From assembly GCA_018826075.1 (NCBI GenBank), contig JAHKAJ010000025.1, positions 37,608 to 101,607 on the forward strand: DNA of 64,000 nt, given 5' to 3'. The stretch's first letter is position 1. The number at the start of each line of letters is the position of its first letter. Position numbers and translations under genes: made by a program. Below, one piece after another: positions 4,663 to 49,411 of this stretch. The notes under the pieces were generated by a model, which was given only the letters and a program-made list of their open reading frames with translations, searched no databases and was not told where the DNA came from. The DNA is from Candidatus Omnitrophota bacterium (GTDB lineage: Bacteria > Omnitrophota > Gorgyraeia > Duberdicusellales > 4484-171).

Positions 4663-4739
4663 TGGGGTGGGTGACGAGATTTGAACTCGCGACCACTTGA
4701 GCCACAGTCAAGTGCTCTGCCAACTGAGCTACACCCACC
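4663..4739 (-). tRNA. tRNA-His (GTG)
   Basis: The reverse complement folds as a cloverleaf: GGTGGGTG/TAGCTCAGTTGGCAGAGC/CTTGA-CTGTGGC-TCAAG/.../CACCCACC-CCA. The anticodon loop is CTGTGGC (GTG), with an extra 5' G typical of tRNA-His and an encoded CCA. Confidence 0.85.
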
Positions 4740-4749
4740 AAAAAAAGTA

Positions 4750-5052
4750 TTATTTAGGGTTATTCCTTATTTTTTGGTGGCACCGAGGCTGTAAAGCCGA
4801 GGTGCCTCTATTTATCAACTGAATCTTTTTATCTTTGCTCCAACCTTTGATCTCTGCTTCTCTTTTAAGAACCTCTGATTTAGATAAAAATTCCTCACTA
4901 TATTTTAGCTCTACCGGCCTCCTAAATTTAGTAAACCGGCAACCTTGACCCCGATTGTGTTGTTTAATCCTGTTATCTAAATTATTAGTAATACCTGTAT
5001 ATAACTTTTGATCCTTACACTTGATTATATACAAGTACCACCTTTTGTCCAT
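4750..5052 (-). CDS. GIY-YIG nuclease family protein
   Basis: YLYIIKCKDQKLYTGITNNLDNRIKQHN matches the GIY...YIG motif plus the conserved R/E. 100 aa. It lies between direct repeats of the tRNA-His 5' end. Confidence 0.75.
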   Translation of the reverse strand: MDKRWYLYIIKCKDQKLYTGITNNLDNRIKQHNRGQGCRFTKFRRPVELKYSEEFLSKSEVLKREAEIKGWSKDKKIQLINRGTSALQPRCHQKIRNNPK

Positions 5053-5172
5053 TTTCTAGATCCTTCGCCTTCGGCTCAGGATTAATTCAACTATGTACTT
5101 TTGCAAGTTCGAAAAACGCAGCAAAAGTACAAGTTTCATTAAGCTACACCCACCAAAAAAGCATTATCTATC

Positions 5173-6447
5173 TTAATTTTGCGATTCCGCAGGTTGTTGT
5201 TCTGATGTTTCTTTATTTTTTTTGGGGACAAAGATGCTTTTCAGGGTATCGACTATTTCTTCCCCGCTTTTCTTAAAAACATCAATGGTCTCATCTAGGG
5301 TGAGTTCCTTCCCCTCTTTAAGCTTGTCTCCAATATTTTCCTTAAGGTTATCGGCAACCCCCTGGACCATCAATGAACCAAAAGGAACAACTTCTTTAAG
5401 GCTATCCTTTATTGAAGTTAAGTTTAAATTAGGAGAATCCATTTTAGTCTTAATCACAAAATTAAACACCGGTTTGTCTCCGGGGCCTTTCAAGAAAGAA
5501 AGAATGGTCCGTAAAGTCTTAGTCCGGGAACTCTCCTCCTGACCCTCGGGAACTTCCAGATATTCTATATTTTCTAAAACTAAAGAACTTTCTATGGCCA
5601 GCTCATTTTCCTTAGAGTTAAAATTGCTGTTTAAAGAAAGGCTGGCCTGTTTAATCCCCCAACTCTCCGGCTTCCAAAATGCCGGCCAATAGGAACTAAA
5701 AGCATTGTATCTGATATCCTCCAGACTGACATCCAGATCCATATTTTTATGATAATAATCTACCCAGCCGTTGGCAGACATACTTTCTATAGCGCTGGTT
5801 TCTCCGACCGTAGCAAAACCTTTAGCTTTCAGATAAAATTTTTCCGGATCAGGAAAAGAAAAATTCGTCAACTTTATGTCGACATCTTTGATGATTATTG
5901 GTTTTGCTTCCCGGTTGGTTTTATCTTCAAACTCTATCCGGCTGTTGATCACCCGGATATCTTTTATGGTAACCGGGATTATCTTGACTATCTCGGGTTC
6001 ACCAGCCTCTGCGGCTTTTTTGGAAACAAAATTAGTGGCCGGGCCAGAAGTTGGTTGATTCTCAGATAACTTTTCCTCTAAGCTTCCTTGAGGTTTTCCT
6101 TTTTCAAAAAAAGGCAAAACATGTAAACCTCTCCGGTCGTTTACGATGTTAATTTTCAGGCCGTCAACAATAAGTTTAGCTACAGCTAAACGCCTAAAAG
6201 GATTAAACAAATCTAAGTAAGCATTGGCTTTATCAAACGAGATATCAGCACACTCAAAACCTTTTAACTCTATAGCGAAAGGAAAACTTACCCGTAGCGA
6301 TTCAATTTCTACTTCCTGGCCAAAATTTTTCTCTAAGTTAGCGATTATTATCTCTCTCCCCTTTAGGTTAAGAAAGATAAAAAGAGCTGCATGAAATAAA
6401 ATTATTGCAACTACCAATAAACCCAGAGCAATCAATAATTTTTTCAT
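5173..6447 (-). CDS. membrane-anchored hypothetical protein (AsmA-like architecture)
   Basis: N-terminal TM helix followed by a long beta-rich periplasmic region. The family assignment is tentative. Confidence 0.3.
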   Translation of the reverse strand: MKKLLIALGLLVVAIILFHAALFIFLNLKGREIIIANLEKNFGQEVEIESLRVSFPFAIELKGFECADISFDKANAYLDLFNPFRRLAVAKLIVDGLKINIVNDRRGLHVLPFFEKGKPQGSLEEKLSENQPTSGPATNFVSKKAAEAGEPEIVKIIPVTIKDIRVINSRIEFEDKTNREAKPIIIKDVDIKLTNFSFPDPEKFYLKAKGFATVGETSAIESMSANGWVDYYHKNMDLDVSLEDIRYNAFSSYWPAFWKPESWGIKQASLSLNSNFNSKENELAIESSLVLENIEYLEVPEGQEESSRTKTLRTILSFLKGPGDKPVFNFVIKTKMDSPNLNLTSIKDSLKEVVPFGSLMVQGVADNLKENIGDKLKEGKELTLDETIDVFKKSGEEIVDTLKSIFVPKKNKETSEQQPAESQN

Positions 6448-6497
6448 TTCAGTATTTTTCTCCTTATTCTTCGTTTTTACGATTAAGATAAAACCAC

Positions 6498-6570
6498 GTG
6501 CCCGGCAGGAATCGAACCTGCAACCCTCGGCTTAGAAGGCCGATGCTCTATCCAATTGAGCTACGGGCAC
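6498..6570 (-). tRNA. tRNA-Arg (TCT)
   Basis: Reverse complement GTGCCCGTAGCTCAATTGGATAGAGCATCGGCCTTCTAAGCCGAGGGTTGCAGGTTCGATTCCTGCCGGGCACG. Anticodon loop CTTCTAA. Confidence 0.8.
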
Positions 6571-6574
6571 AATT

Positions 6575-6652
6575 TGGTCGGGGCGACAGGATTCGAACCT
6601 GTGACATCTTGGTCCCAAACCAAGCGCTCTAACCGGACTGAGCCACGCCCCG
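6575..6652 (-). tRNA. tRNA-Pro (TGG)
   Basis: Reverse complement CGGGGCGTGGCTCAGTCCGGTTAGAGCGCTTGGTTTGGGACCAAGATGTCACAGGTTCGAATCCTGTCGCCCCGACCA. Anticodon loop TTTGGGA. CCA is encoded. Confidence 0.8.
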
Positions 6653-6712
6653 AACACAAAGGTAAATTTATTATAACTGGTTTTCTTATAGTGTAAAGGC
6701 GGTTTTGCCTCT

Positions 6713-7492
6713 CTAAAGACAAGCCGAAACGATTTCGACTACCCTTTGGTGAATTTTTTTATTCGAAGCAATATAGCCTATATTTTTATAGGTTAAAGGC
6801 TTTCCTTTTAAATCAGTTAAGCTGCCGCCGGCTTCCTCGATCAGGCATACCCCTCCGGCAAAATCCCAGGGCCGGTCATGAAATTCAACTACAAAATCCA
6901 AAACCCCTTCAGCAACATAGGAAAGATGCCGGGCTGATGAGCCAAGCATCCGAACATTAAAAACTTCCCTGGCTAAATTTCCCAAAGCCGGCAGCATCTG
7001 TTCCGGTGAATAACGAATACTGGAATCAAAGGCGATCGAACAATCCTTTAAAACATCGTTGGCCGAAACAGAAATCTTTCTGCCGTTTTTATAAGCTCCC
7101 TGGCCTTTTTCAGCGCTATACAGCTCATCGTCTTTAGGCATATAGATTATTCCGGCAACAAAATCTTTCTGCTTATGCACCAGTCCGATAGAAACTCCAA
7201 AAATATCGATGTTACGGATAAAATTATGGGTACCGTCTAAAGGGTCAATAATCCAAATATATTCTTTATCTTGGCCACTTGAGCCGCTTTCTTCAGCGAG
7301 AATAGCATGATCGGGAAATCGGGCTTTGATTTTACTGATAATCATCGCTTCAGCTTCCCGGTCCAGATTAGTGGCGAAATCACGATCGCCTTTTTTCTTA
7401 ATCTGGCTTACTTTGCCGAAATTATCCCAGAGAAATTTTCCAGCAACTCTGGCAGCTTCAATACCGACATCAAGAATTTTGCTCACCCTCAC
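6713..7492 (-). CDS. suhB: inositol monophosphatase family protein
   Basis: WIIDPLDGTHNF and the WDxAAG-like region (WDFAGG) match IMPase family motifs. Confidence 0.8.
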   Translation of the reverse strand: MRVSKILDVGIEAARVAGKFLWDNFGKVSQIKKKGDRDFATNLDREAEAMIISKIKARFPDHAILAEESGSSGQDKEYIWIIDPLDGTHNFIRNIDIFGVSIGLVHKQKDFVAGIIYMPKDDELYSAEKGQGAYKNGRKISVSANDVLKDCSIAFDSSIRYSPEQMLPALGNLAREVFNVRMLGSSARHLSYVAEGVLDFVVEFHDRPWDFAGGVCLIEEAGGSLTDLKGKPLTYKNIGYIASNKKIHQRVVEIVSACL

Positions 7493-7950
7493 CTCCGTTT
7501 CTTATAAAATCTTTTTAAACTGCGTTCGGTCTCACGCTTGACAATGTCTTCTTTGATCTTTCTGCGTTTATCCTGAATCTGTTTTCCTTTGGCTAAAGCC
7601 AGTTCTATTTTAGCAATGCCCCGGTCGCTGAAATAGACCTTCAAAGGAACAAGTGTGCAGCCTTTTTGGACAGTCAGGCCGATCAAGCGCTTGATTTCTT
7701 TTTTATGCACCAGCAGCTTTCTTACTCTTTTGGGGTCACTTTTAAAATATGAGCTTTTGGCAAATTCAGGAATATGCATATTGTATAAAAAAAGTTCGTT
7801 GTTTTCAATCCGGCCAAAACTCTCATCAAGAGAACAATTCATGGTGCGTAAGGATTTGACTTCATTGCCTCTCAGGGCGATTCCGGCATCGATGGCCTCA
7901 AGGATGGTATAATCACGCCTGGCTTTTCTATTGGTAGCGACTATCTTCAT
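7489..7950 (-). CDS. smpB: SsrA-binding protein SmpB
   Basis: The N-terminus is conserved in SmpB (IATNRKARRDYTILE..GIALRGNEVKSLR). 153 aa. Confidence 0.9.
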   Translation of the reverse strand: MKIVATNRKARRDYTILEAIDAGIALRGNEVKSLRTMNCSLDESFGRIENNELFLYNMHIPEFAKSSYFKSDPKRVRKLLVHKKEIKRLIGLTVQKGCTLVPLKVYFSDRGIAKIELALAKGKQIQDKRRKIKEDIVKRETERSLKRFYKKRR

Positions 7951-7952
7951 AG

Positions 7953-8903
7953 CTATAAAAAACTAAATCCCAAAACCTGCATTAAACTTAAAAGAAGCGG
8001 GATAGTAATAATGCTTAACAGGTGAGTAAAAAATACCCCCTGGGAAACAAACTCGCTGTCAGCTCCCCGCAGGTTAGCGATGATCGGCAGAGACACTGCC
8101 GACGGCATTGCTGCCTCAAGGACAATAAACACCCCCAGAAGTGAAAACAGCTTAAAATAAACTAAGCCAACCATAAACAAAAGCGGCATCAGCAGCAGCT
8201 TTAAAAGCCCCAGTTCAAAGATCAGCATCAGCTGCTTGGTAAAACCTTCCAGCTTGATCTTAGCCAGCCAACAGCCCAAAATTATCAGCGAAAGGACAAA
8301 ACTGGTATCGCCGACCATCTGCAAAGGGTCTAACAGGGTTTTGGGAATAAACCCAATAGTCTTAGTATAAATAAACAATAAAGCCAAAACTATGCCTAAA
8401 ACCGGCGGCGTAAATAACGACTGAAAACGAAAAGCTTCTTTCTTCTTTCGAAAAATCAGAAAACTGCCCAGGGACCACATGATCACATTATACCCGAGAA
8501 GGTAGAGAAAAATATAGACTAAAAACTTTTCACGCAGGCCGCCGGCCGGAAAAAGAAAAAAAGCTATGCTTATCGGTAAGTATCCTCCATTCTGGAAACT
8601 TATCGCGCTGATAAACTCCTCTTTGAGTTTATGGCTTTTTCCCCAGGAAACGATTAAACCCAAAAAATAGCCGACTAAAAAAATAAGAATGGCGATAAGA
8701 ATAAACACCCAAAGGGAGCTGGATAAAACTATCTGAGAACTGCCGATCAGGCGAGAAAAGATCAAAAAAGGAAAAGTAAAATTTATTACCAAAGCAGTTA
8801 AAACGCCTAAAGCCTGATCGGTAATGACCTTTCGCTTATAAAGGTAAAATCCAAAAAGGGCAATTAATAGAAGTTTAATAACTGTCAAGGATACTGATTG
8901 CAT
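7953..8903 (-). CDS. AEC (auxin efflux carrier) family transporter
   Basis: About 10 TM helices with an N-terminus typical of AEC/malate-permease-like proteins. Start trimmed to ATG at 8903 because the longer ORF overruns tRNA-Ser and tRNA-Leu. Confidence 0.55.
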   Translation of the reverse strand: MQSVSLTVIKLLLIALFGFYLYKRKVITDQALGVLTALVINFTFPFLIFSRLIGSSQIVLSSSLWVFILIAILIFLVGYFLGLIVSWGKSHKLKEEFISAISFQNGGYLPISIAFFLFPAGGLREKFLVYIFLYLLGYNVIMWSLGSFLIFRKKKEAFRFQSLFTPPVLGIVLALLFIYTKTIGFIPKTLLDPLQMVGDTSFVLSLIILGCWLAKIKLEGFTKQLMLIFELGLLKLLLMPLLFMVGLVYFKLFSLLGVFIVLEAAMPSAVSLPIIANLRGADSEFVSQGVFFTHLLSIITIPLLLSLMQVLGFSFL

Positions 8904-8920
8904 ATTAAAATATTGGTTCT

Positions 8921-9016
8921 TGGCGGAGAGGGTGAGATTTGAACTCACGGTCCCGCCATTAAGCAGGACTTCCGATTTCGAATCGGACGCATTCAACCGG
9001 GCTCTGCCACCTCTCC
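8921..9016 (-). tRNA. tRNA-Ser (CGA)
   Basis: Reverse complement GGAGAGGTGGCAGAGCCCGGTTGAATGCGTCCGATTCGAAATCGGAAG + long variable arm + GTTCAAATCTCACCCTCTCCGCCA. Anticodon loop TTCGAAA. Confidence 0.8.
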
Positions 9017-9021
9017 AAAAA

Positions 9022-9104
9022 TGCGGAAGGGGGGACTTGAACCCCCATAGTATTGCTACCACTAGGTCCTGAACCTAGCGCGTCTGCCATTCCGCCACTT
9101 CCGC
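9022..9104 (-). tRNA. tRNA-Leu (CAG)
   Basis: Reverse complement GCGGAAGTGGCGGAATGGCAGACGCGCTAGGTTCAGGACCTAG + long variable arm + GGGGGTTCAAGTCCCCCCTTCCGCA. Anticodon loop TTCAGGA. Confidence 0.8.
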
Positions 9105-12554: not shown

Positions 12555-12716
12555 GGGGACAGGTCCCACTAGAATAGCCCTAATGTTTTCAAGTATTTTT
12601 AGGTCTTTTTTCAATTTTCTAAAATCTCCTAAGATTACCTTCTCATTTTCGATTTTCAGAAAAACCAGCAAATAATCCTTTATTTTATTGGGGTGATTTG
12701 ACTGGGACCTGTCCCC
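12555..12716. mobile_element. 162-bp MITE-like element, copy 1 (perfect 13-bp TIR GGGGACAGGTCCC)
   Basis: The left end GGGGACAGGTCCCAC and right end GGGACCTGTCCCC are exact reverse complements. A second 162-bp copy, roughly 70% identical by eye, lies at 45649-45810. Confidence 0.6.
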
Positions 12717-14176
12717 AATAGGTCTTTGCTGAAGATATTATCCAGGCCCAAAAGGCATTGGGGATCAAAATACTTCTTCAAAGCTGCCATTTGGTTGATC
12801 TCATCCTGACTATACATAATCTCTAAATAAGCTTTTTTCAGCTTACCGATTCCGTGTTCAGCTGATACTGTCCCGCCTAAGGAAACTGCCAGGCGGCAAA
12901 GTTCCTTAAGATAGCTTTTAGCCAGCTGACTCTGAGAATTGGTTTGCGGTAAAAAATTAAAATGAAGGTGTGATTCACCGATATGGCCAAAATTAAGATA
13001 ACTTAACTTTGCCTCTTGAGAAACTTTTCGGTAATACTGATGCATCTGCTTAAAATTACTTTCGGGAACAGCGATATCTGCAGCAGCCTTAACCTGTTTG
13101 GCCCGGCGTAAAAACTCATTGATCAGCTGGGGTAATTTATGCCTTATCTGATATACCTTCTCTCGTTCTTTAGCGGTTTCGGCGAAAATAGATTGATCAA
13201 GGAAAGCGCCGCTGGTTTCAATTAAACCCTGCCATTTATCGACTAGCGCGTCATACTCCTCTTTATTTTCTGCTTCCTGTTCAAAATAAACTGTGCCTCC
13301 GGCTTTTGGCATGAAAGAATATTCACGGCGCAAAAGATTTAATGAATTCTGATCTAGAAATTCTAGGGCAGCCGGATTCTGTAGGGGCGCAAAATTTTGC
13401 GCCCCTACTTTAATTCTTTCTGTAAATTGCAGGGCTTCTTCTTCCTGAGGGAAAAACAGCAAACCGTCAAAAACTCCAAAAGGGATATTTTGCAAAGCTA
13501 ATTCCAGGGAGCTGATTATACCCAAAGTCCCTTCGGAACCGATAAAAAGATCGATTAAATCCATATTGTCCCTTACAAAATACCCGGCCTGGGATTTACA
13601 GGCCGGAAGATGATAATCAGGGAGTTTAAAATCAAACTGACGGCCGGCGATCTTAAAGTTAAAAACTCTTTTTTGGGAAAAAATCTCACCCCGCCGCAAA
13701 TGAATTGCTTCTCCGGAAGAAAGGAAAATCTCAACTGCCCTGATGTAATTTCGTATCCCTCCCCAGCCAAAACCATGCACCCCTGAGGCAGCAGTTGAAG
13801 CTACGCCGCCGGCTAAAGCCAAAGGTTCGGTAGGTAAAGATCTTAGCGTTAACTTATGTTTTCTTGCTTCTTTTTCCAAATCTTGAAGCGAAACTCCAGC
13901 TTCTAGCTTAGCAGTTTTAGCCTCGGGATCGATCTGGATATTGTCCTTTAAGCCTTCTAAAGATATGATCGCCCCTTCCTGCGGAACACAACCTCCGGTA
14001 GTCCCGGTTCTTCCGCCCGAAGCAGTAAAAGGGATGTTTTTTTTAGAAAGCTCCCGGATTATCGCTAAAAGTTCTTCCTGATTTTGTGGTATATATAAAG
14101 CTGAAGCCGCCCCCTGACGATTAGAAGTATCCTCTAAGTAAGTAAGCAGATCTTTCTGGTTGGTTTTGGAGATCAT
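12680..14176 (-). CDS. FAD-binding oxidoreductase (GlcD / D-lactate dehydrogenase-like)
   Basis: FAD_binding_4-type glycine-rich motif SGGRTGTTGG. The last 12 codons and the stop are supplied by the MITE-like element. Confidence 0.75.
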   Translation of the reverse strand: MISKTNQKDLLTYLEDTSNRQGAASALYIPQNQEELLAIIRELSKKNIPFTASGGRTGTTGGCVPQEGAIISLEGLKDNIQIDPEAKTAKLEAGVSLQDLEKEARKHKLTLRSLPTEPLALAGGVASTAASGVHGFGWGGIRNYIRAVEIFLSSGEAIHLRRGEIFSQKRVFNFKIAGRQFDFKLPDYHLPACKSQAGYFVRDNMDLIDLFIGSEGTLGIISSLELALQNIPFGVFDGLLFFPQEEEALQFTERIKVGAQNFAPLQNPAALEFLDQNSLNLLRREYSFMPKAGGTVYFEQEAENKEEYDALVDKWQGLIETSGAFLDQSIFAETAKEREKVYQIRHKLPQLINEFLRRAKQVKAAADIAVPESNFKQMHQYYRKVSQEAKLSYLNFGHIGESHLHFNFLPQTNSQSQLAKSYLKELCRLAVSLGGTVSAEHGIGKLKKAYLEIMYSQDEINQMAALKKYFDPQCLLGLDNIFSKDLLGTGPSQITPIK

Positions 14177-25033: not shown

Positions 25034-25855
25034 CTAATTCTGAGTCTCAAATGCCAGCATCATCAGATTAGCCCGAGTAATACTTATAACGCCGGAAGTT
25101 GTATCTTTATACCAGCGGACTTGGAGAGTGTGAGCACCAGCGGCTACGTTAGGAATAACCGTATTGTTACTAATCAAAGGCTGCGAAAGAATCGGTGTAC
25201 CGGTTTTCTGTCCTTGCTGAGCACCGTCTAAAAAACATTTAGTAACTATATTCTCGGTACCGGCAAGGCCAGCGGGATTAGTAATATTAACAGCGATATT
25301 ATAAAAAACATTCAAATCCTTTACTACCGGATAATTAAAAGTAATAGTCAGGTCGCCTACCAACTGGAAACTGCTAGGTGGTACTGTGCAGGAAGAAGTA
25401 GCACAGCTACTGTCCATTACCCTTCTTTCAAGATGGACAAAAGGATAAGGTATTAGATTGCGCAGGGTAAGTTTTTTCCATTTATTGGCGATATTTCCGG
25501 AAGCGCCTTCATCGGGATAGGTAACAGTCACATCGATCTGCTTATAAGGTATGTTCTTGGAAGTACCTGCCCAGAAAAGTTCCTGGACTTCAGTTTCCCA
25601 ATGAAAAATATCCTCATTACCCTGTTCAATGCCTAAAAGGACATTCTCATAGGAATGGGCCAGGAGGCTTTCTTTATGGGCCAGGGCAATACTGGTTGCC
25701 CTGGCCTCATTTCTTGATCTTCTCAACAGATAATTGCCGGAACTCAACACCGCAGAAACTGCCCCGGCTCCTATGGCTATCAAAACAATAGCCACCAAAA
25801 GCTCAATAAGGGTGATACCCTTACGCTGATAATCTTTATGCCTCATGCTGTACAT
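25034..25855 (-). CDS. minor pilin / pseudopilin (large)
   Basis: GITLIELLVAIVLIAIGAGAVSAV is a prepilin-type N-terminus. 273 aa. Confidence 0.65.
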   Translation of the reverse strand: MYSMRHKDYQRKGITLIELLVAIVLIAIGAGAVSAVLSSGNYLLRRSRNEARATSIALAHKESLLAHSYENVLLGIEQGNEDIFHWETEVQELFWAGTSKNIPYKQIDVTVTYPDEGASGNIANKWKKLTLRNLIPYPFVHLERRVMDSSCATSSCTVPPSSFQLVGDLTITFNYPVVKDLNVFYNIAVNITNPAGLAGTENIVTKCFLDGAQQGQKTGTPILSQPLISNNTVIPNVAAGAHTLQVRWYKDTTSGVISITRANLMMLAFETQN

Positions 25856-26719: not shown

Positions 26720-28291
26720 CTACTCTCTAACCATAACCGCAGTCAATAACATGGATTTCACAGTCACCTCCAGATCCGCGCCATTGACTTCGGGTATATA
26801 ATAATGAATTCTTGCGCTATACTTTTTGCCCTGATGAAGCACTCCTAACCCTGTCATTGGATCGAAGGCTTCTATGGCTGCGGCATTGAAGATAGAGAAA
26901 TCTGCGGTAAGGCTCTTTTGATGGATAATGCTTTCAAAAACCGGATCAGCCAGCCCCTCTTGGTAGATTTTTATCATCGTAAAAAAATAGACGTCATTGA
27001 TTGCTGGAAAATTTTTGATATTGCTAATAGTATCCAGCTGCCATTCTATGATCATTGACTGGCCGCTGCGGGCCACAAAGTCAAGCCGGAAACCCGGATG
27101 GGGATTTAAAGGGTCGATAATGGGCGGGTCGATTTCATGAAAACACTGGGCACAACCACCAATACTCTTATCATAAACACAATCCTGGATAGTTTGTTCT
27201 ATCTGCAAACAATCATCGGCAATAATTGTATTGCAAGTTTTGGCAGTGACAGCATCGGCTAAAACCACCGGATCATTCCAATGGGTAAAAAGCTTAATAC
27301 AAGCGCCTCCTTCATCTCCCGGTATCAAAGGATTAGGCTGGGCATAGTCGCAGTCTGCGATCGTTCCAGTTGGTCCAGTTCCACAAGATTCGTGCTTGCA
27401 ACAATATTCGTGTTTACTACAAATTTCAGCAGTATCGGTGTAGGTGCGGCAAGCGTTAATATAGCTACCGTAAACAGGATCAATATCATACTTATAGCAA
27501 GGTGTTGTATTGCTTACCCCTAAAGCAGAATCCTCAGGACAAGGCGTGAGAGCCGGGCCTAAATCATAATAAATATCCTGGGAAGCAGTACTGGGAGTAT
27601 AGTTAGTTAAAACCGGCGTCCCCATAGAGTCAGGGATATCGATCTCAGGCCTGCATCCTCTAACAGTGATATTATCAACCGGCATAAGGTCATTCTCAAG
27701 ACAATACCAGCCGCTGCCGCCTAAAGAATCCGGCACACAATCAGGACTTTGAGGAGTTAAATCCGGGGTAGCATCCGGACAACCTTTTCTTTGACAAGAT
27801 GGTATATTATTAATTTGCCCGGGGTTACAGTTTGTCGATAATGGATCATGAACGCAGACGTCGTCAGGATCTGTAAGACTTGGGCTACAACAATCAACCT
27901 CATTGCAAGTACCACTACTAAAAGCATATTGACCACAATTAAACCCCGCACACTGTGCCTGCGGTGAACCGCTGGTCATATCTACACAACAAGCAGGACA
28001 TTTTGTGTTATATCCGAGACAGTTCTCGCAATCGATTAAACTATTGAATAAGAGGGCATTGGCGATAGGACATACAACTTCGTCCAATACTTTAGGATAA
28101 CCAGCCAGGGGATCGTCCGGATCATTAGTGGTAATACTGGCTATCTTCTCATTAGCCGGAAAGTATTTAAGGTAGGGATTTGGCTCCTCGGCAAAAGCTA
28201 GAAAACCCACCAAAAGAATACAGATTATCAATACTGCTTCCGGCAGTTCTGACTTTCGGTTTTTATTTCTTAGAAAAGACTTTTTTACCAT
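26720..28291 (-). CDS. large cysteine-rich secreted protein (putative pilus-associated adhesin)
   Basis: Likely start MVKKSF... followed by a signal/TM segment. The 520-aa body contains several dozen Cys in CxxC/CC/CxC spacings. It sits between the major pilin and the minor pilins. Confidence 0.5.
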   Translation of the reverse strand: MVKKSFLRNKNRKSELPEAVLIICILLVGFLAFAEEPNPYLKYFPANEKIASITTNDPDDPLAGYPKVLDEVVCPIANALLFNSLIDCENCLGYNTKCPACCVDMTSGSPQAQCAGFNCGQYAFSSGTCNEVDCCSPSLTDPDDVCVHDPLSTNCNPGQINNIPSCQRKGCPDATPDLTPQSPDCVPDSLGGSGWYCLENDLMPVDNITVRGCRPEIDIPDSMGTPVLTNYTPSTASQDIYYDLGPALTPCPEDSALGVSNTTPCYKYDIDPVYGSYINACRTYTDTAEICSKHEYCCKHESCGTGPTGTIADCDYAQPNPLIPGDEGGACIKLFTHWNDPVVLADAVTAKTCNTIIADDCLQIEQTIQDCVYDKSIGGCAQCFHEIDPPIIDPLNPHPGFRLDFVARSGQSMIIEWQLDTISNIKNFPAINDVYFFTMIKIYQEGLADPVFESIIHQKSLTADFSIFNAAAIEAFDPMTGLGVLHQGKKYSARIHYYIPEVNGADLEVTVKSMLLTAVMVRE

Positions 28292-28707
28292 ACTTCGCAC
28301 TCCTTGTTCACCTGGCTTCCTTTCTCGATAACACTCATATTCATTCCGCCGCAAATCCCCTCGCCTCTACGGGTTGCCGTGGCATTAAAACTGCTGCTGG
28401 TATTGGTAATCGAGTAATTAAAATATGAATCGCTGATGTACACTCCTAAGTTACTTTGATTCTCAAGTTCGTCGGCTGTGCAGACAGCTGCTGCACAAGC
28501 ATAGTAATGATTATGGTCGAGTTTATAACGCTTCTGGGAATTATAAATACTGATAAGGGTGTATTCAGCATTTTTGGCTTTGCTTTTTTCGATCGAACTC
28601 TGATAAGAAGGAATAGCCAGAGAAAAAAAGATCCCGATAATGATCAAAGCTACTAAAAGCTCGACCAAAGTAAAAGCTGCCGGTTTATTTTTATTATGCC
28701 CCCCCAT
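28285..28707 (-). CDS. type IV pilin (first gene of second pilin cluster)
   Basis: MGGHNKNKPAAFTLVELLVALIIIGIFF is a prepilin leader plus hydrophobic helix. A sigma70-like TTGAAT-N17-TATAAA lies just upstream. Confidence 0.7.
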   Translation of the reverse strand: MGGHNKNKPAAFTLVELLVALIIIGIFFSLAIPSYQSSIEKSKAKNAEYTLISIYNSQKRYKLDHNHYYACAAAVCTADELENQSNLGVYISDSYFNYSITNTSSSFNATATRRGEGICGGMNMSVIEKGSQVNKECEVW

Positions 28708-29629: not shown

Positions 29630-31072
29630 CTAACCCCTCCATCTTAAATCGGGAAACCGGGCAGCCCTGACCTCATCTACCCGTTTAACCGGAGCAGACT
29701 GGGGTGAGTTTTTAACCCTTTCTAAATCCAGCTCGATTTCCCGGTTGATCTCTAACATCACTTCAATAAACTTATCTAAAGTTTCTTTACTTTCAGTTTC
29801 AGTAGGCTCGATCATTAGGGCTTCTTTAACGATCAAAGGAAAATATATGGTCGGCGGATGGATTCGGTAATCAATAAGCCGCTTAGCAATATCTAAAGCT
29901 GAAGCCCCTTTTTCTTTTTGGCTCTCGGCCGAGAATACCACTTCATGCATGCAGGCCTTAGGGTAAGGCAAACAATAATAATTTCTTAACTTTTCCTTGA
30001 GGTAATTTGCGTTGACTACCGAATTCTTGGCAACCCGTAAAAGGCCTTCTTGGCCTAAACGCAAGATGTAAGCATAGGCTCTGATCAAAACTGAAAAATT
30101 TCCGTAGAAAGCTCTCAAGCGGCCGATCGAATTCTTTAAGCAATAATCAAAATAATAATTATCCTCTCTTTTAACCACCAAGGGAACCGGTAAAAAATCT
30201 ATTAATTTATCACCAACGCCCACAGCACCCAGGCCCGGGCCGCCAGAACCATGGGGAGTGGAAAAAGTCTTATGTAGATTAAGGTGGACCAAATCAAAAC
30301 CCATTTTAGCCGGATTGGTTATTCCTAACAGCGGGTTAAAATTTGCGCCGTCATAATAAAGAAAACCGCCTTTCTGATGCACAATATCGGCTATCTCCAA
30401 AATATTTTCTTCAAACAGGCCTAAAGTGTTAGGGTTAGTAAGCATTATTGCTGCTGTCTCCTCATCTACCGCTAACCTTAGTTTCTCCATATCCACCAGG
30501 CCGGATGCATCACTTTCTACCACCACTACTTTATAGCCGCACATAGCTGCTGTGGCCGGATTGGTTCCGTGAGCTGAATCAGGGATGATCACTTTGGTCT
30601 TGCGGTTTCCGGCTGACTGGTGAAATTTATGAATCATCAAAAGCCCGGTAAGCTCTCCCTGGGCCCCGCTGGAAGCCTGAAAACTAAATTGCTTCATCCC
30701 GGTTATTTCACATAAAAGCACGTTTAACTGATAGATAAGTTCCAGGGCTCCCTGGACAGCCTGAGGCTCTTGGTAAGGATGGATCTCTGAAAAACCCTCT
30801 AAGGCGGCTAAAGCCTCGTTAATTTTAGGGTTGTATTTCATAGTGCAGGAACCCAAAGGATAAAAATTAGTATCTACTGAAAAATTAAGTTTTGCTAAAT
30901 TAAGATAATGCCTGACCACTGAAAGTTCTCCCAGCTGGGGCAAACTCAAACCTTTACGCAAAAGCTTAGGCCCGAGAATATCTTCGGGGTCAACTAAAGG
31001 CACCTGGGTCTTACCGATGTAACCGGGATCATTGGAGCCGCTTTTTTTCTGAAAAATAACTTTCCTATCCAT
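29630..31072 (-). CDS. gcvPB: glycine dehydrogenase (decarboxylating) subunit 2
   Basis: SCTMKYNP and the PLP-lysine region match GcvPB. 480 aa. Confidence 0.9.
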   Translation of the reverse strand: MDRKVIFQKKSGSNDPGYIGKTQVPLVDPEDILGPKLLRKGLSLPQLGELSVVRHYLNLAKLNFSVDTNFYPLGSCTMKYNPKINEALAALEGFSEIHPYQEPQAVQGALELIYQLNVLLCEITGMKQFSFQASSGAQGELTGLLMIHKFHQSAGNRKTKVIIPDSAHGTNPATAAMCGYKVVVVESDASGLVDMEKLRLAVDEETAAIMLTNPNTLGLFEENILEIADIVHQKGGFLYYDGANFNPLLGITNPAKMGFDLVHLNLHKTFSTPHGSGGPGLGAVGVGDKLIDFLPVPLVVKREDNYYFDYCLKNSIGRLRAFYGNFSVLIRAYAYILRLGQEGLLRVAKNSVVNANYLKEKLRNYYCLPYPKACMHEVVFSAESQKEKGASALDIAKRLIDYRIHPPTIYFPLIVKEALMIEPTETESKETLDKFIEVMLEINREIELDLERVKNSPQSAPVKRVDEVRAARFPDLRWRG

Positions 31073-32411
31073 GGAGTATCTCGGCTAAATAATAGATAAA
31101 CTGATCAATATCATCTTTAGTCTTTTTCTCAGTACAAGAACTTAGGATTCCATTTTTATGCTTGGGGAACAGGTCACCGACCAAGTAACCGGGGATTATT
31201 TTCTTCCGGTAAAGTTTATCGACTATGGCTTTAGCATCCTCGACTTCCCAGATAAATTCGTTGAATACTTGCGGCGGGTAAGGAAGTTTTACACCTCTGA
31301 CTTCTTTGAGACGCCGGTAAAGATACTGGGTATTACTAAAAGAATACCTAGCGGCATTACTAAAACCTTCCCGGCCGAGCAGCGAAAGATAAACTGCCGC
31401 GGCTATAGCATTTAAAGAATGGTTTGAGCAAATGTTACTGGTAGCTTTTTCCCTACGGATATGCTGTTCACGAGCCTGCAAAGTAAGGCAAAAAGCAATT
31501 TTACCCTCCAGGTCTTGGGTCTTACCGACTATTCTTCCGGGGATCTGACGCAGGTATTCGTCTTTAGCCGCTAAAAATCCAAAAGCCGGGCCGCCAAAGT
31601 TAAGGCTGCCGCCCAGAGGTTGCCCGTCACCGCAAACAATATCTACACCTAAAGCTTTTGGTTCTTTAAGGATGGCCAGAGAAAAAGGATTAGTGACCAT
31701 TACGGTTTTTACCCCTCTTTCTTTAGCTAAAGCTGATAGATCAGCAACATCTTCTACTAAACCAAAAAAATTGGGGCTCTGAATAACTAAGCACCCGGTA
31801 TCAACATCGATTTGGCGTTCTAACGATTGCTTATCGATCAGCCCGTTATCGTTAAAATCCAATTCTTTGATCTGGAAATCCAAAGCACTTAAGTAGGTGC
31901 GCAGGGTTTGGAAATATTCCCGGTTTAAGTTTGCCGGAACAATGACTTTATTGGCTTTAGTCACCCTTAAAACCATCAGCACTGCCTCGGCTAAGCTTGA
32001 AGCACCGTCAAGCAAAGAGGCATTGGAAACATCCATTCCGGTCAAAAGACAGATATAGCTCTGATATTCATAGATCGCCTGAAGCAGGCCTTGCGAACAT
32101 TCGGCCTGATAAGGCGTATAGGCAGTCAAAAACTCTGACTGGGAAATTATAAAATCTAAAGCTGCCGGCCGGTAATGATCGTAGCAACCGGCACCTAAAA
32201 AGGAGTTGAAGTTATTTAAAGAGATATTTTTTTTAGCCAGGCCTTCCACTGCCTTTTTAGTATCCAGCTCGCTTAAACCAGAAGGAATATTCAAGGGGCC
32301 TTTAAGTTTTACCTGGGCCGGAACCTGCCGATAAAGCTCATCTAGAGAGCCTACCCCGATAACTTTCAGCATCTCTTCAATTTGTTCCTGGGTATTTAAG
32401 ATGTAAGGCAT
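31065..32411 (-). CDS. gcvPA: glycine dehydrogenase (decarboxylating) subunit 1
   Basis: GcvPA N-terminal half of the P-protein. 448 aa, between gcvH and gcvPB. Confidence 0.9.
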   Translation of the reverse strand: MPYILNTQEQIEEMLKVIGVGSLDELYRQVPAQVKLKGPLNIPSGLSELDTKKAVEGLAKKNISLNNFNSFLGAGCYDHYRPAALDFIISQSEFLTAYTPYQAECSQGLLQAIYEYQSYICLLTGMDVSNASLLDGASSLAEAVLMVLRVTKANKVIVPANLNREYFQTLRTYLSALDFQIKELDFNDNGLIDKQSLERQIDVDTGCLVIQSPNFFGLVEDVADLSALAKERGVKTVMVTNPFSLAILKEPKALGVDIVCGDGQPLGGSLNFGGPAFGFLAAKDEYLRQIPGRIVGKTQDLEGKIAFCLTLQAREQHIRREKATSNICSNHSLNAIAAAVYLSLLGREGFSNAARYSFSNTQYLYRRLKEVRGVKLPYPPQVFNEFIWEVEDAKAIVDKLYRKKIIPGYLVGDLFPKHKNGILSSCTEKKTKDDIDQFIYYLAEILHG

Positions 32412-32420
32412 AAATTACAA

Positions 32421-32457
32421 ATGTCGTTGTAGGGGCGGGTTTGAAACCCGCCCCTAC
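32421..32457 (-). promoter_or_regulatory. conserved GC-rich hairpin element immediately 5' of the gcvPA start
   Basis: ATGTCGTTGTAGGGGCGGG-TTTGAAA-CCCGCCCCTAC: an 11-bp perfect stem ending 10 nt from the gcvPA ATG. Same core as the element before gcvT. Confidence 0.5.
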
Positions 32458-32466
32458 GTTAACGGG

Positions 32467-32841
32467 TTATTCCTGTTCAACAAATTCTTTATACGTCATC
32501 TCGTCCATTAAATTATCTAATTCAGCGGGATTAGTAACTTTGACTTTTATCATCCAGCCTAAATTTTCCGGCGACTGGTTGACCAACTGGGGGTTGGAGA
32601 CTACACTGCCATTGGTCTCGACTACTACTCCGCTGAGCGGCGAATAAAGCTCACTGGCAGCCTTAGTTGACTCAATAGTACCGAATTGGGCCGACTGCTT
32701 AATGGCGTCACCGACTTTAGGCAACTCCACAAAAACAACATCGCCTAAATGGCTCTGGGCATAATCACTGATGCCAATAGTCGCTGTTTCAGCCTGGACT
32801 GCTACCCACTCATGAGACTTGGCAAATTTTAAACCGGTCAT
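32467..32841 (-). CDS. gcvH: glycine cleavage system H protein
   Basis: Lipoyl-lysine motif ESTKAAS. 124 aa. Confidence 0.9.
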   Translation of the reverse strand: MTGLKFAKSHEWVAVQAETATIGISDYAQSHLGDVVFVELPKVGDAIKQSAQFGTIESTKAASELYSPLSGVVVETNGSVVSNPQLVNQSPENLGWMIKVKVTNPAELDNLMDEMTYKEFVEQE

Positions 32842-32842
32842 T

Positions 32843-33946
32843 TCATACCCCCTTACTGGCTAACTTTTTTGTTTTTGGTATTATAAACGGAAATTTAGAA
32901 ACCACTGCCCGATAAAATTTCTCGCGTATTTTTATCATAATCTCAGTACCAACCTGAGATTGTTTTCGGTCTAGATAAGCCATACCGATAAATTGATCCA
33001 GATTGGGAGAAAATGTCCCGCTGGTCACCTCCCCCACCGGTTTATCTTCAAAGTAAACCGGATATCCCTGACGGGGAACGCTGCGTTGTTTCATTATAAA
33101 GCCTACCCGTTTTTTGTCTAACCCTTGCTCCTGGCCGACGATTATTTTTTCCTTGCCGATAAAATCTTTACTATCCTTTACTGCCCAGGATAAAGCTGCC
33201 CGATGAGGATTGATATCTTCACCAAGCTCGTGGCCGTACAAAGGATAACCGGCTTCGATCCTTAAAATATCGCGGGACCCTAATCCACAAGGAGTAATCC
33301 CGAATTTTTCACCCTTTAGGAAAAACTCATCCCACCAGAAACCAGCCTCATCCCAGGGAAGATAAAGTTCGAAACCGTCTTCGCCGGTATAGCCGCTGCG
33401 CGAGATAAGATAGGCCCGGCCTTGAGATTGGCCTTGGAGAAAATGCATATAGTCTAGGTTTGCAGCTCCTGAACCCAAACAATCAAAGATTATCTGCGAA
33501 GCCTTTGGGCCCTGAAGAGAGATCAAAGCCAATTCACTACTTTTGTCGATGATTTTAACTCCTTCCTGATTGTTTTTGTTAAACCAGGAGAAAACTTTAT
33601 CTTTGTTTAAAGCATTGACTACGCATAAAAACTTATCAGCAAAACAGTAAACCATACAATCATCGACTACTCCACCCTGAGAATTGGTGATCAAATTATA
33701 CTGCATTTGTCCGGGGCTGATCAGAGAAAGGTCATTGCTTAAAAGCCGCTGGAGAAAATTTAAAGCTTTGACTCCCAATACTTCTATCTCACCCATATGT
33801 GAGGCATCAAAGATTCCGCAAGCATTACGGGTTGCTTTGGCTTCCAGTAAAATACTTTTATACTCTAAAGGCAAAGCCCAGCCTGAAAAATCAACTATCC
33901 GGCCGTTTAAATTTATGTGTTGTTGGTAAAGAGGTGTTTTCTTCAT
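32843..33946 (-). CDS. gcvT: aminomethyltransferase (glycine cleavage T protein)
   Basis: GcvT family. 367 aa, first gene of the gcv operon. Confidence 0.9.
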   Translation of the reverse strand: MKKTPLYQQHINLNGRIVDFSGWALPLEYKSILLEAKATRNACGIFDASHMGEIEVLGVKALNFLQRLLSNDLSLISPGQMQYNLITNSQGGVVDDCMVYCFADKFLCVVNALNKDKVFSWFNKNNQEGVKIIDKSSELALISLQGPKASQIIFDCLGSGAANLDYMHFLQGQSQGRAYLISRSGYTGEDGFELYLPWDEAGFWWDEFFLKGEKFGITPCGLGSRDILRIEAGYPLYGHELGEDINPHRAALSWAVKDSKDFIGKEKIIVGQEQGLDKKRVGFIMKQRSVPRQGYPVYFEDKPVGEVTSGTFSPNLDQFIGMAYLDRKQSQVGTEIMIKIREKFYRAVVSKFPFIIPKTKKLASKGV

Positions 33947-33948
33947 TT

Positions 33949-33985
33949 ATGTCGTTGTAGGGGCGACCCGGCGGGTCGCCCCTAC
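33949..33985 (-). promoter_or_regulatory. conserved GC-rich hairpin element immediately 5' of the gcvT start
   Basis: ATGTCGTTGTAGGGGCGACCCG...CGGGTCGCCCCTAC: a 13-14-bp stem. On the minus strand the hairpin ends about 6 nt before the ATG. Confidence 0.5.
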
Positions 33986-34023
33986 GGCGATAGGTTTATC
34001 TATTAAAATATTTACGTATTGTA

Positions 34024-34686
34024 TCATATTTTCAGGATAAAAGAAAGAGTCCTTGAGCTGGTTTGGTTGCGACGGAAGGAAAAAAAATCATCGGGTAAAC
34101 AAAAGCTGCAAAGCCCTGAATCAAGGAAGTTCTCCGGCTTTAAACCTTTACCGAAAAGCTGATATTTAGCAAAACTAATCGGGTCAAAATAAGATCCTTT
34201 TGGCTCACTTTTTATAAAATCCTTAAATGGAGGGTGAGTTAAAAACTCATCCCCCACCTGATAACAGCAACTTCTTAAACCCGGGCCGGCAACTACTTTA
34301 AAAGACTCTAGACAATAGTCGATATTATCCAGGATCCCCGCTTTGGCCGAACGCCAGCCCATATGGACAACACCGATTACTCCTAATTTTTCACTGGCAA
34401 AAATAAGCGGCAGGCAGTCAGCAGTCCGAACGATTAAAACCAAGCCTTTCTCTTTGGTAAACAAAGCATCCCCTTCATGGATACCTTCCTTAGCTAGAAG
34501 TATCACTTTTGAAGAATGGACCTGGTTTAGATAGCTTGATTTAAACTTTTGATCAAGAAAAGATAAAGCGGTGTATATATCCTGAGGTAGATCTCCCGGT
34601 AAGTTATTTTTGCTAAATCCGGCAGTTACGAATGAAGGAAAACATTCTTTGAATAAACTACAATATTTATGACTGGTTAGTTTCAC
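34024..34686 (-). CDS. pgeF: YfiH/PgeF family protein (purine nucleoside phosphorylase / peptidoglycan editing factor)
   Basis: TADCLPLIF and VHMGWRSAKAGI motifs of the DUF152/YfiH family. Confidence 0.75.
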   Translation of the reverse strand: MKLTSHKYCSLFKECFPSFVTAGFSKNNLPGDLPQDIYTALSFLDQKFKSSYLNQVHSSKVILLAKEGIHEGDALFTKEKGLVLIVRTADCLPLIFASEKLGVIGVVHMGWRSAKAGILDNIDYCLESFKVVAGPGLRSCCYQVGDEFLTHPPFKDFIKSEPKGSYFDPISFAKYQLFGKGLKPENFLDSGLCSFCLPDDFFSFRRNQTSSRTLSFILKI

Positions 34687-49358: not shown

Positions 49359-49411
49359 CCACCTACGAGGAGTCCGCTGACTCGTATCTTATGGCGGACA
49401 CCTCGTAGGTG
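49359..49411. promoter_or_regulatory. long imperfect inverted repeat carrying the CCACCTACGAGG motif between ribD stop and nitroreductase start
   Basis: CCACCTACGAGGAGTCCGC...16-nt loop...GCGGACACCTCGTAGGTG: an 18-bp stem with one mismatch and no T-tract. Confidence 0.45.

Follow-up and report, generated by a model that had tools for sequence, protein, structure and literature searches.

The stretch of DNA analyzed here (hereafter, the window) comprises 64,000 nt of contig JAHKAJ010000025.1 (assembly GCA_018826075.1) from a Candidatus Omnitrophota bacterium and carries a gcv operon arranged on the minus strand in the order yfiH-like gene, 77-nt spacer, gcvT, gcvH, 55-nt spacer, gcvPA, gcvPB and lipoate-protein ligase gene. 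Both spacers contain a GC-rich hairpin with the general form of a near-perfect 29-nt palindrome, GTAGGGGCG-N11-CGCCCCTAC, the full sequences on the mRNA strand being GTAGGGGCGACCCGCCGGGTCGCCCCTAC before gcvT (copy A) and GTAGGGGCGGGTTTCAAACCCGCCCCTAC before gcvPA (copy B), while a third palindrome of the same kind (copy C) is located inside a gene for an FAD-linked oxidase (Table 1). These hairpins are repeats, their presence at the gcv junctions is lineage-specific, and we consider them very probably to be repetitive extragenic palindromes (REPs) of an already known kind in a new host, as opposed to a dedicated switch responding to glycine or acting on translation.

Table 1. Coordinates of the palindromes, their shared flank and their host genes in the 64-kb window
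Feature	Position	Strand	Description
Palindrome copy A	33957..33985	.	29-nt double-foot palindrome, on mRNA (minus) strand GTAGGGGCG-ACCCGCCGGGT-CGCCCCTAC
Palindrome copy B	32429..32457	.	29-nt double-foot palindrome, on mRNA (minus) strand GTAGGGGCG-GGTTTCAAACC-CGCCCCTAC
Palindrome copy C	13381..13408	.	perfect 28-nt palindrome GTAGGGGCGCAAAATTTTGCGCCCCTAC, in frame inside coding sequence, translated VGAQNFAPL
Flank AACGACAT (mRNA sense) beside copy A	33949..33956	-	common to copy B; part of the DNA that relatives lack
Flank AACGACAT (mRNA sense) beside copy B	32421..32428	-	directly 3' of copy B on mRNA
yfiH/pgeF-like gene, 5' of copy A	34024..34686	-	Cu-oxidase_4 family; family assignment and synteny in relatives
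gcvT (aminomethyltransferase), 3' of copy A	32843..33946	-	Pfam GCV_T, GCV_T_C
gcvH, 5' of copy B	32467..32841	-	Pfam GCV_H
gcvPA (glycine dehydrogenase subunit 1), 3' of copy B	31065..32411	-	Pfam GDC-P
FAD-linked oxidase (GlcD / D-lactate dehydrogenase-like), host of copy C	12680..14176	-	Pfam FAD_binding_4, FAD-oxidase_C

As RNA, copies A and B are predicted to fold at -27.1 kcal/mol (z = -6.1) and -25.1 kcal/mol (z = -7.4), respectively, with no shuffle of either 29-mer being as stable, and each forms a 13-bp stem with a 3-nt loop (as DNA, 14 bp around one central nucleotide). Copy A lies 38 nt 3' of the yfiH-like stop codon and 10 nt 5' of the gcvT ATG, and copy B lies 9 nt 3' of the gcvH stop codon and 17 nt 5' of the gcvPA ATG; the two copies differ at 9 of their 11 inner positions. 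An earlier sequence-only reading of this DNA had located both hairpins correctly, and the 17-mer CGCCCCTACAACGACAT shared by them on the mRNA strand occurs exactly twice in the window (about 0.06 occurrences expected even with 3 mismatches). Other parts of that reading need correction: the stem before gcvPA, given as 11 bp, has the same 13 bp as the one before gcvT; the hairpins, described as sitting directly on the translation starts, are both set apart from them, with the proposed end point of 6–10 nt before the start codon holding for gcvT and failing for gcvPA; and the third copy had been overlooked.

Several familiar RNA elements were considered for the two gcv hairpins. Glycine riboswitch motifs (RF00504) had not been recognized in the gcvT leader by the sequence-only reading, and covariance-model searches bear this out, yielding no match to this family at Rfam gathering thresholds across the whole window and no match to it or to any other Rfam family at E <= 10 with permissive filters over positions 32300–34400. 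The sole likeness to this riboswitch is genomic position upstream of gcvT, 29 nt of the 77-nt leader of the window being the palindrome; a glycine riboswitch, or any other Rfam family, was rejected for want of a relevant match. An intrinsic terminator was likewise rejected on the grounds that the mRNA strand has no T-run after either hairpin (the tails being AACGACATAA and AACGACATTT), and the only call of a terminator scan was a weak one at copy A on the plus (antisense) strand. Inspection of the spacers between hairpin and start codon revealed no Shine-Dalgarno sequence in either of them.

Copy C (RNA fold of -22.6 kcal/mol) is carried in frame by an oxidase open reading frame (ORF) that is nevertheless intact at 498 aa. 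In an alignment with 20 Omnitrophota homologues (alignment A1), it takes the place of a variable 9-residue linker (consensus ELKKKNVLS) with a net gain of 2 residues. Because this copy resides in a coding sequence 19 kb away from the gcv operon, the hairpin is not specific to translation starts. A 28-mer identical to copy C was found in a Bacteroidia contig (L055). The three copies are the longest GC-rich palindromes in the window and account for all of the exactly 6 occurrences of GTAGGGGCG (3 palindromes on both strands); at 3 copies per 64 kb, two extragenic and one intragenic, they are singletons spaced at least 1.5 kb apart.

Further evidence on the nature of the gcv hairpins comes from related operons, which were located via a protein index (the best GcvT match in the metagenome collection was only 53% identical). 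A GcvT protein identical to that of the window is encoded on GCA_043812175.1 as well as by JGI, ENA and Logan assemblies, each of which has identical hairpins. The gene order DFP - flavoprotein - RmuC - yfiH - gcvT - gcvH - gcvPA - gcvPB is preserved in three relatives (L281, L282 and L284), whose GcvT proteins are 72, 64 and 61% identical to that of the window, respectively. In these relatives, the yfiH stop codon is separated from the gcvT ATG by 29, 14 and 14 nt, and the gcvH stop codon from the gcvPA ATG by 7, 3 and 14 nt, and neither junction holds a palindrome; the corresponding distances in the window are 77 and 55 nt, with a palindrome at both junctions. The alignment of the window with L281 contains a clean 48-nt gap that holds copy A, with matching bases on both sides, and the gcvH–gcvPA junction of the window is likewise 48 nt longer than that of L281. 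A search of 42 further gcvT loci (193 kb) for any GT[AG]G...C[TC]AC palindrome was negative. Presence and absence of the palindrome thus differ between orthologous sites, as one would expect of a mobile or recently gained element. Since the syntenic junctions of relatives are palindrome-free and only 3–29 nt long vs. 77 and 55 nt, sequence comparison identifies the gcv hairpins as lineage-specific insertions and not as a conserved part of gcv regulation.

The same comparison drew attention to a motif upstream of gcvT. At 34015–34035 of the window (minus strand), the yfiH stop codon and an extended -10-like motif (TGATACAAT; TGTGATAAAAT in L281) overlap, and the motif is kept in all four aligned sequences, i.e., the window, L281, L282 and L284 (alignment A2, 4/4). 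In L282 and L284 the motif is just 8 nt 5' of the likely gcvT ATG, a spacing that would make the gcvT mRNA nearly leaderless and would account for the missing Shine-Dalgarno sequence, which was also absent from the gcvT leaders of the 2 relatives that could be read cleanly. In the window, the insertion moves the gcvT ATG to about 70 nt from the motif.

A broader context for the three copies was provided by pattern searches for GTAGGGGCG-N6-16-CGCCCCTAC (allowed lengths of 24–34 nt) in a species-representative genome collection and for the same feet separated by N8-13 (26–31 nt) in IMG/VR contigs; the 9-nt foot GTAGGGGCG is demanded by the search pattern and, hence, invariant in the resulting sample. 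The palindrome was found in at least 120 genome loci representing more than 20 phyla (including Chloroflexota, Cyanobacteriota, Bacteroidota, Desulfobacterota, Omnitrophota, Bacillota, Planctomycetota and Patescibacteria) and on at least 120 uncultivated viral contigs. Such raw counts prove nothing by themselves, given that 18 fixed bases would produce an estimated one hundred or so chance matches in 596 Gb. Because chance could yield counts of this order, the family was judged by the length, inner sequence, flanks, placement and variants of its copies.

The length is 28 or 29 nt in 214 of the 253 distinct copies (loci L001–L242 plus the window). The inner 10–11 nt are self-complementary, with recurrent types ATTCATGAAT, GGTTTSAAACC, GTTCGCGAAC, TATTGCAATA, CAGCATGCTG and CACGGCCGTG, and all three inner variants of the window recur in other phyla (e.g., that of copy B in L049 and L023). 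Watson-Crick pairing holds at the three outer variable pairs in 89–99% of the 73 distinct 10-nt inner types, with all four pair types present, a pattern indicative of compensatory variation; the centre of the 28-mer is GC in 31 distinct types, AT in 21, TA in 1 and CG in 0. The flanks are random save for a weak pyrimidine (5') and purine (3') bias, T-runs being the commonest flank 6-mer. Approximately 72% of the copies fall between genes, with crude gene calls putting the coding share of these loci at 87%. Copies in genome loci sit mostly between convergent or tandem genes; measured from a stop codon, the median distance comes to 35 nt for genome loci and 24 nt for viral loci. Related feet (GTAGGGGCA, GTAGGGGTT and GTAGGGACG) occur in the same loci as GTAGGGGCG copies. 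By these sequence features (length, inner sequence, flanks, placement and variants) the family matches the behaviour of REPs.

Additional candidate features of the family were considered and rejected. Neither a target-site duplication nor a conserved flank exists beyond the weak pyrimidine/purine bias. The flank AACGACAT of the gcv copies is not a family feature, and the 10 viral matches to CGCCCCTACAACGACA are chance occurrences without a palindrome. A general lower stem built from the flanks was no different from that obtained with shuffled partners. A linked transposase or other partner gene was rejected as well, there being no recurrently adjacent protein family: when the ORFs within 4 kb were clustered all against all for 240 loci, only phage structural genes (from the viral set) emerged, and nothing informative came from the genes lying between paired copies in L071, L125 and L188. 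A literature search for the literal palindrome sequence returned unrelated eukaryotic matches only.

The viral copies (loci L123–L242) are often found in short gaps by capsid, portal, terminase and tail genes (e.g., L188 5521–12444, L125 492–1150 and L154 3630–8575), with four palindrome copies in L188. None of these viral loci contains a gene for a REP-associated tyrosine transposase (RAYT), and the cultured phage genomes of INPHARED gave no match to six common variants. In one locus (L071), two copies at 2633–2660 and 6491–6518 with reverse-complementary flanks of at least 15 nt surround a 3.8-kb segment with an FtsJ-like methyltransferase gene; this segment may be an inverted duplication or an invertible segment.

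A link between the palindrome and RAYT-like HuH/Tyr enzymes emerged from a single locus (L015, a metagenome-assembled genome (MAG) of Salinibacteraceae), not from recurrent neighbours. In this locus, a gene with a weak Y1_Tnp match is located beside one copy of the palindrome and contains another. Its product is a RAYT-like HuH/Tyr protein (motifs PNHIHG, WQRGFYDH and YVDRNP) matching the NCBIfam model for REP-associated tyrosine transposase (REP_Tyr_transpos) with E = 2.9e-16 and 59.7 bits, a score that stays under the 80-bit cut-off because the match is split by an insertion. What is inserted is the palindrome (GTAGGGGCGTATTGCAATACGCCCCTAC at 3133–3160), translated in frame as RRGVLQYAPT, and the other copy is located approximately 100 nt upstream. 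In another locus (L098), the palindrome is likewise in frame inside a RAYT-like gene fragment. Palindrome-derived peptides (e.g., RGVLQYAPT, VGAQHAAPL, VGAHGRAPL, VGATGRSPL, VGAYCNTPL and VGAQRRCAPT) are present in 89 of the 120 best RAYT homologues, many of which carry the JGI name "REP element-mobilizing transposase RayT". Of 94 such peptides, 87 fall between the HuH and WQ motifs; two control families yielded 1 of 120 (a protein fragment from the window itself) and 0 of 120, respectively. Three identical 29-nt palindromes (one 237 nt upstream, one internal and one at the 3' end) accompany a RAYT gene from Anaerolineae (L297), and internal palindromes are also found in the RAYT genes of L298 and L299.

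Two further observations concern these enzyme genes. A RAYT-like gene with an internal palindrome lies between the genes for the specificity (HsdS) and restriction (HsdR) subunits of a type I restriction-modification operon in L299 (1303–1863) and L300 (1302–1862), where it overlaps the end of hsdS by 4 nt. In several RAYT homologues (P0266, P0284, P0262 and P0261), the region between HuH and Tyr is occupied by long tandem arrays of degenerate palindrome-derived peptides, such as (GRGVLPTD)n and (GKGVWDEEGEVDRK)n, with the proteins expanded to 266–349 aa.

Overall, we interpret the window hairpins, with considerable confidence, as three copies of a double-foot REP of the type associated with RAYT / TnpA_REP enzymes of subclass 2.4 (Bertels Group 4). 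By analogy with TnpA_REP and IS200/IS605 systems, DNA that becomes single-stranded (e.g., at a replication fork) would let the palindrome fold into a hairpin; an HuH/Tyr enzyme encoded elsewhere in the genome would recognize this hairpin together with its GTAG foot, and would cleave and rejoin the single-stranded DNA, with copies spreading in trans. With GTAG on each strand, the enzyme could use either one as a substrate. In this lineage, copies have landed in two very short gcv junctions and in the tolerant linker of the FAD oxidase gene. We infer the transposition chemistry of the palindrome from these better-studied relatives, and we likewise infer that effects on gcv expression, if any, would be a by-product of the repeat. 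Possible by-products include hindered initiation at gcvT and gcvPA (the gcvT stem ending at -11), a loss of coupling between the translation of gcvH and that of gcvPA, stalled ribosomes at the stop codon of gcvH, which lies 9 nt upstream of copy B, and protection of upstream mRNA or of mRNA 3' ends; for E. coli, REPs located <= 15 nt downstream of an ORF have been discussed as controllers of translation (PMC12306157).

A number of observations weigh against this interpretation. A tblastn search with 121 RAYT queries found no RAYT gene within the 64-kb window (only palindrome-encoded peptides matched), and a RAYT gene is present within approximately 8 kb in only 2 of 240 palindrome-bearing loci. 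Hence, the enzyme must act in trans, and a RAYT gene is assumed to exist elsewhere in this Omnitrophota genome. The extra DNA at each gcv junction amounts to 48 nt, which is 19 nt beyond the 29-nt palindrome, and both inserts share on the start-codon side the 8-nt AACGACAT, generally absent from the palindrome family. Copy C has replaced about 22 nt of the oxidase gene instead of being simply inserted. The two central base pairs are complementary in 67–73% of distinct inner types vs. 25% by chance, which counts against a hairpin-only model, because such a model does not need complementarity at this position. Finally, REP mobility in general is described as not formally demonstrated in the consulted passages of PMC6006769, and the passages of PMC6006769, PMC5581495 and PMC8266576 compared here do not show activity of subclass 2.4 enzymes. 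The REP interpretation accommodates the missing neighbour in that the palindrome family is linked to RAYT-like genes via action in trans and via the sequences of the enzyme genes themselves, as the in-frame copies indicate, and not via adjacency. A more far-reaching version of this interpretation, in which the GTAGGGGCG-foot palindrome represents one horizontally spreading lineage across more than 20 phyla, with host RAYTs copying it in trans into the viruses of these hosts, and in which two 48-nt inserts remodelled the gcvT and gcvPA initiation regions from nearly abutting junctions to structured spacers of 77 and 55 nt that were later co-opted to throttle or uncouple translation, appears unlikely to us.

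The pair of hairpins could alternatively be a dedicated cis-regulatory RNA element of the gcv operon, which would answer to a protein or metabolite by blocking or positioning the ribosome at gcvT and gcvPA. Two very stable copies (-25 to -27 kcal/mol) placed 10 and 17 nt upstream of start codons, as well as 8 extra nucleotides shared on the start-codon side (AACGACAT, not a family feature), speak for such an element, and a stem ending at -11 would be expected to overlap the 30S binding region. Nevertheless, the hairpins are absent at the same junctions in the 3 closest syntenic relatives and from 42 other gcvT loci; the palindrome recurs in coding sequence of the window, in hundreds of unrelated contexts and in transposase genes; no Rfam family matches; and, with 9 of 11 inner positions differing between the two copies, there is no shared loop or stem sequence for a ligand or protein. 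We consider this explanation very unlikely. The translational-control or processing element favoured by the sequence-only reading is not supported by the same comparisons, whereas its alternative of an intra-operon REP-like repeat gains support from copies scattered across unrelated positions, phyla and viral contigs.

Selection might act on the hairpins as RNA elements irrespective of their origin, e.g., as an intra-operon terminator, attenuator or mRNA-stability barrier that sets the ratio of T, H and P proteins. We regard this possibility as very unlikely: on the mRNA strand a T-run is missing after both gcv copies, with only the weak antisense call at copy A, and the hairpins are not kept in relatives, even though copy B begins 9 nt past the gcvH stop codon, family copies cluster near stop codons, T-runs are the commonest flank 6-mer, and REPs are credited with transcription termination and mRNA stabilization in the consulted part of PMC3733652 and, within the <= 15-nt range mentioned above, are tied to translational control in E. 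coli (PMC12306157). A site in duplex DNA that a dimeric protein recognizes (an operator, a site for a nucleoid protein or a dif-like tyrosine-recombinase core of 11-6-11 layout) could explain the fixed 28–29 bp, the perfect dyad symmetry reaching into the two central base pairs, and the combination of a conserved outer 9 bp with an inner 10 bp that varies like a spacer. A spacer, however, need not be self-complementary, yet complementarity at the outer variable pairs is seen in 89–99% of distinct types; copies are located inside coding sequences and reach 3 per 64 kb, no recombinase or regulator is recurrently adjacent, and the HuH/Tyr enzymes to which the family is linked work on hairpins of single-stranded DNA. 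A site of this kind is, in our estimate, extremely improbable. The abutted terminal inverted repeats of an insertion sequence, as well as a dif-like recombinase site, were dropped as candidates once the HuH/Tyr link was found.

Several unrelated features of the window deserve mention. A cluster of five tRNA genes occupies 4666–9104 on the minus strand (4666–4738, 6497–6570, 6578–6652, 8924–9016 and 9022–9104). A 544-aa ORF without a Pfam match (26720–28354, minus strand) is located just downstream of the block of gcv and lipoate-ligase genes. Two GC-rich inverted repeats, at 25679–25706 and 49360–49411, are unrelated to the REP family; one of them is GGCCAGGGCAAT-ACTG-GTTGCCCTGGCC, and the other has 18-nt arms, CACCTACGAGGAGTCCGC and GCGGACACCTCGTAGGTG, placed 16 nt apart.

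A pair of hairpins near two start codons within a single operon readily suggests regulation, and the present case, in which they very probably represent a selfish or neutral repeat, illustrates how recognition of the GTAG...CTAC signature of 28–29 nt guards against false riboswitch or attenuator calls in MAGs. The palindrome also explains recurrent peptides in predicted proteins (such as VGAGFKPAPT, RGVLQYAPT and VGAQHAAPL). The gcv junctions provide clean filled vs. empty sites for a double-foot REP, copy C demonstrates that such a repeat can sit in frame in a housekeeping enzyme, and this type of REP is now placed in a genome of the Omnitrophota as well as on uncultivated viral contigs. Were a RAYT gene to be found in this genome, it would offer a compact system for studying how subclass 2.4 handles a strand-symmetric substrate.

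Among the known systems with which the palindrome can be compared, the small dispersed repeats (SDR) of Nostoc, reportedly described by Elhai et al. in 2008, and the Rickettsia palindromic elements are said to be tiny hairpin repeats whose presence varies at orthologous sites and some of which lie in frame in protein-coding genes. This likeness is a lead and not a sequence comparison, and to our knowledge no transposase has been linked to either group.

Classical REPs, BIMEs and REPINs of E. coli and Pseudomonas (RAYT Groups 2 and 3) share with the palindrome family a GC-rich extragenic character, the GTAG foot and a location mostly downstream of genes, as well as a presumed mobilization in trans by one HuH/Tyr enzyme that works on hairpins of single-stranded DNA. 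Group 2 and 3 TnpA_REP proteins bind and cleave folded single-stranded REPs, and GTAG contributes to recognition and to the choice of the cleavage site (Corneloup et al., 2021; PMC8266576). In the classical group GTAG stays unpaired and is confined to one end, stems are bulged or short, and copies usually form inverted doublets numbering in the hundreds per genome, whereas in the window GTAG is paired with CTAC and the palindromes are perfect singletons; on this account the window copies were not assigned to the classical group. The GTAG-tagged REP super-family (Di Nocera, De Gregorio and Rocco, 2013; PMC3733652) shows a similar mixture of likeness and difference. A GTAG terminus, stems of up to 12–13 bp, sub-families with complementary stem changes, some copies in genes, and occurrence in Cyanobacteria, Chloroflexi and the PVC group are all shared; in contrast, the tag of this super-family is unpaired and at one end, and the string GTAGGG is absent from its text and supplements.

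The closest counterparts are the double-foot REPs of subclass 2.4, as presented in the passages of Quentin et al. (2018; PMC6006769) compared here. Subclass 2.4 TnpA_REP proteins are characterized by motifs NH[IFV]H, WQ and YIxNNP, and their REPs are long, with a stem bottom of three G-C pairs and a "double foot" of 5' GT[AG]G and 3' C[TC]AC. In-frame insertion of a REP inside tnpA_REP between HuH and Y is described there as unique to this subclass, which abounds in Cyanobacteria and Bacteroidetes and scattered in other phyla, consistent with horizontal transfer. The same clade constitutes RAYT Group 4, with representatives in 17 bacterial classes, in the consulted part of Bertels, Gallie and Rainey (2017; PMC5581495). 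All three window copies start with GTAG and end with CTAC, their stem bottom reads GTAG-GGG...CCC-CTAC, and their predicted stems of 12–13 bp enclose loops of 3–4 nt (RNAfold), so that the window hairpins fall, as judged from their letters, within the sequence definition of this REP type. Palindromes inside or flanking tnpA_REP genes are found in other genomes (L015, L098, L297, L298 and L299), the L015 protein having the motifs NHIH, WQ and YVDRNP, and the patchy spread over many phyla is shared as well. Certain differences should be mentioned: the host is an Omnitrophota MAG, a phylum unnamed in these passages of PMC6006769 and PMC5581495; the window is without a cognate gene; family copies also occur on uncultivated viral contigs; and the fixed length of 28–29 nt and the GC/AT bias at the centre, both seen in this family, are undescribed in the same passages. 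The double foot was suggested to arise from a collapsed inverted REP dimer (PMC6006769), and the complementarity extending through the would-be loop of our palindromes fits this suggestion, without proving it. The double-foot REP is thus a kind already known, and what is new here is its host and its sites.

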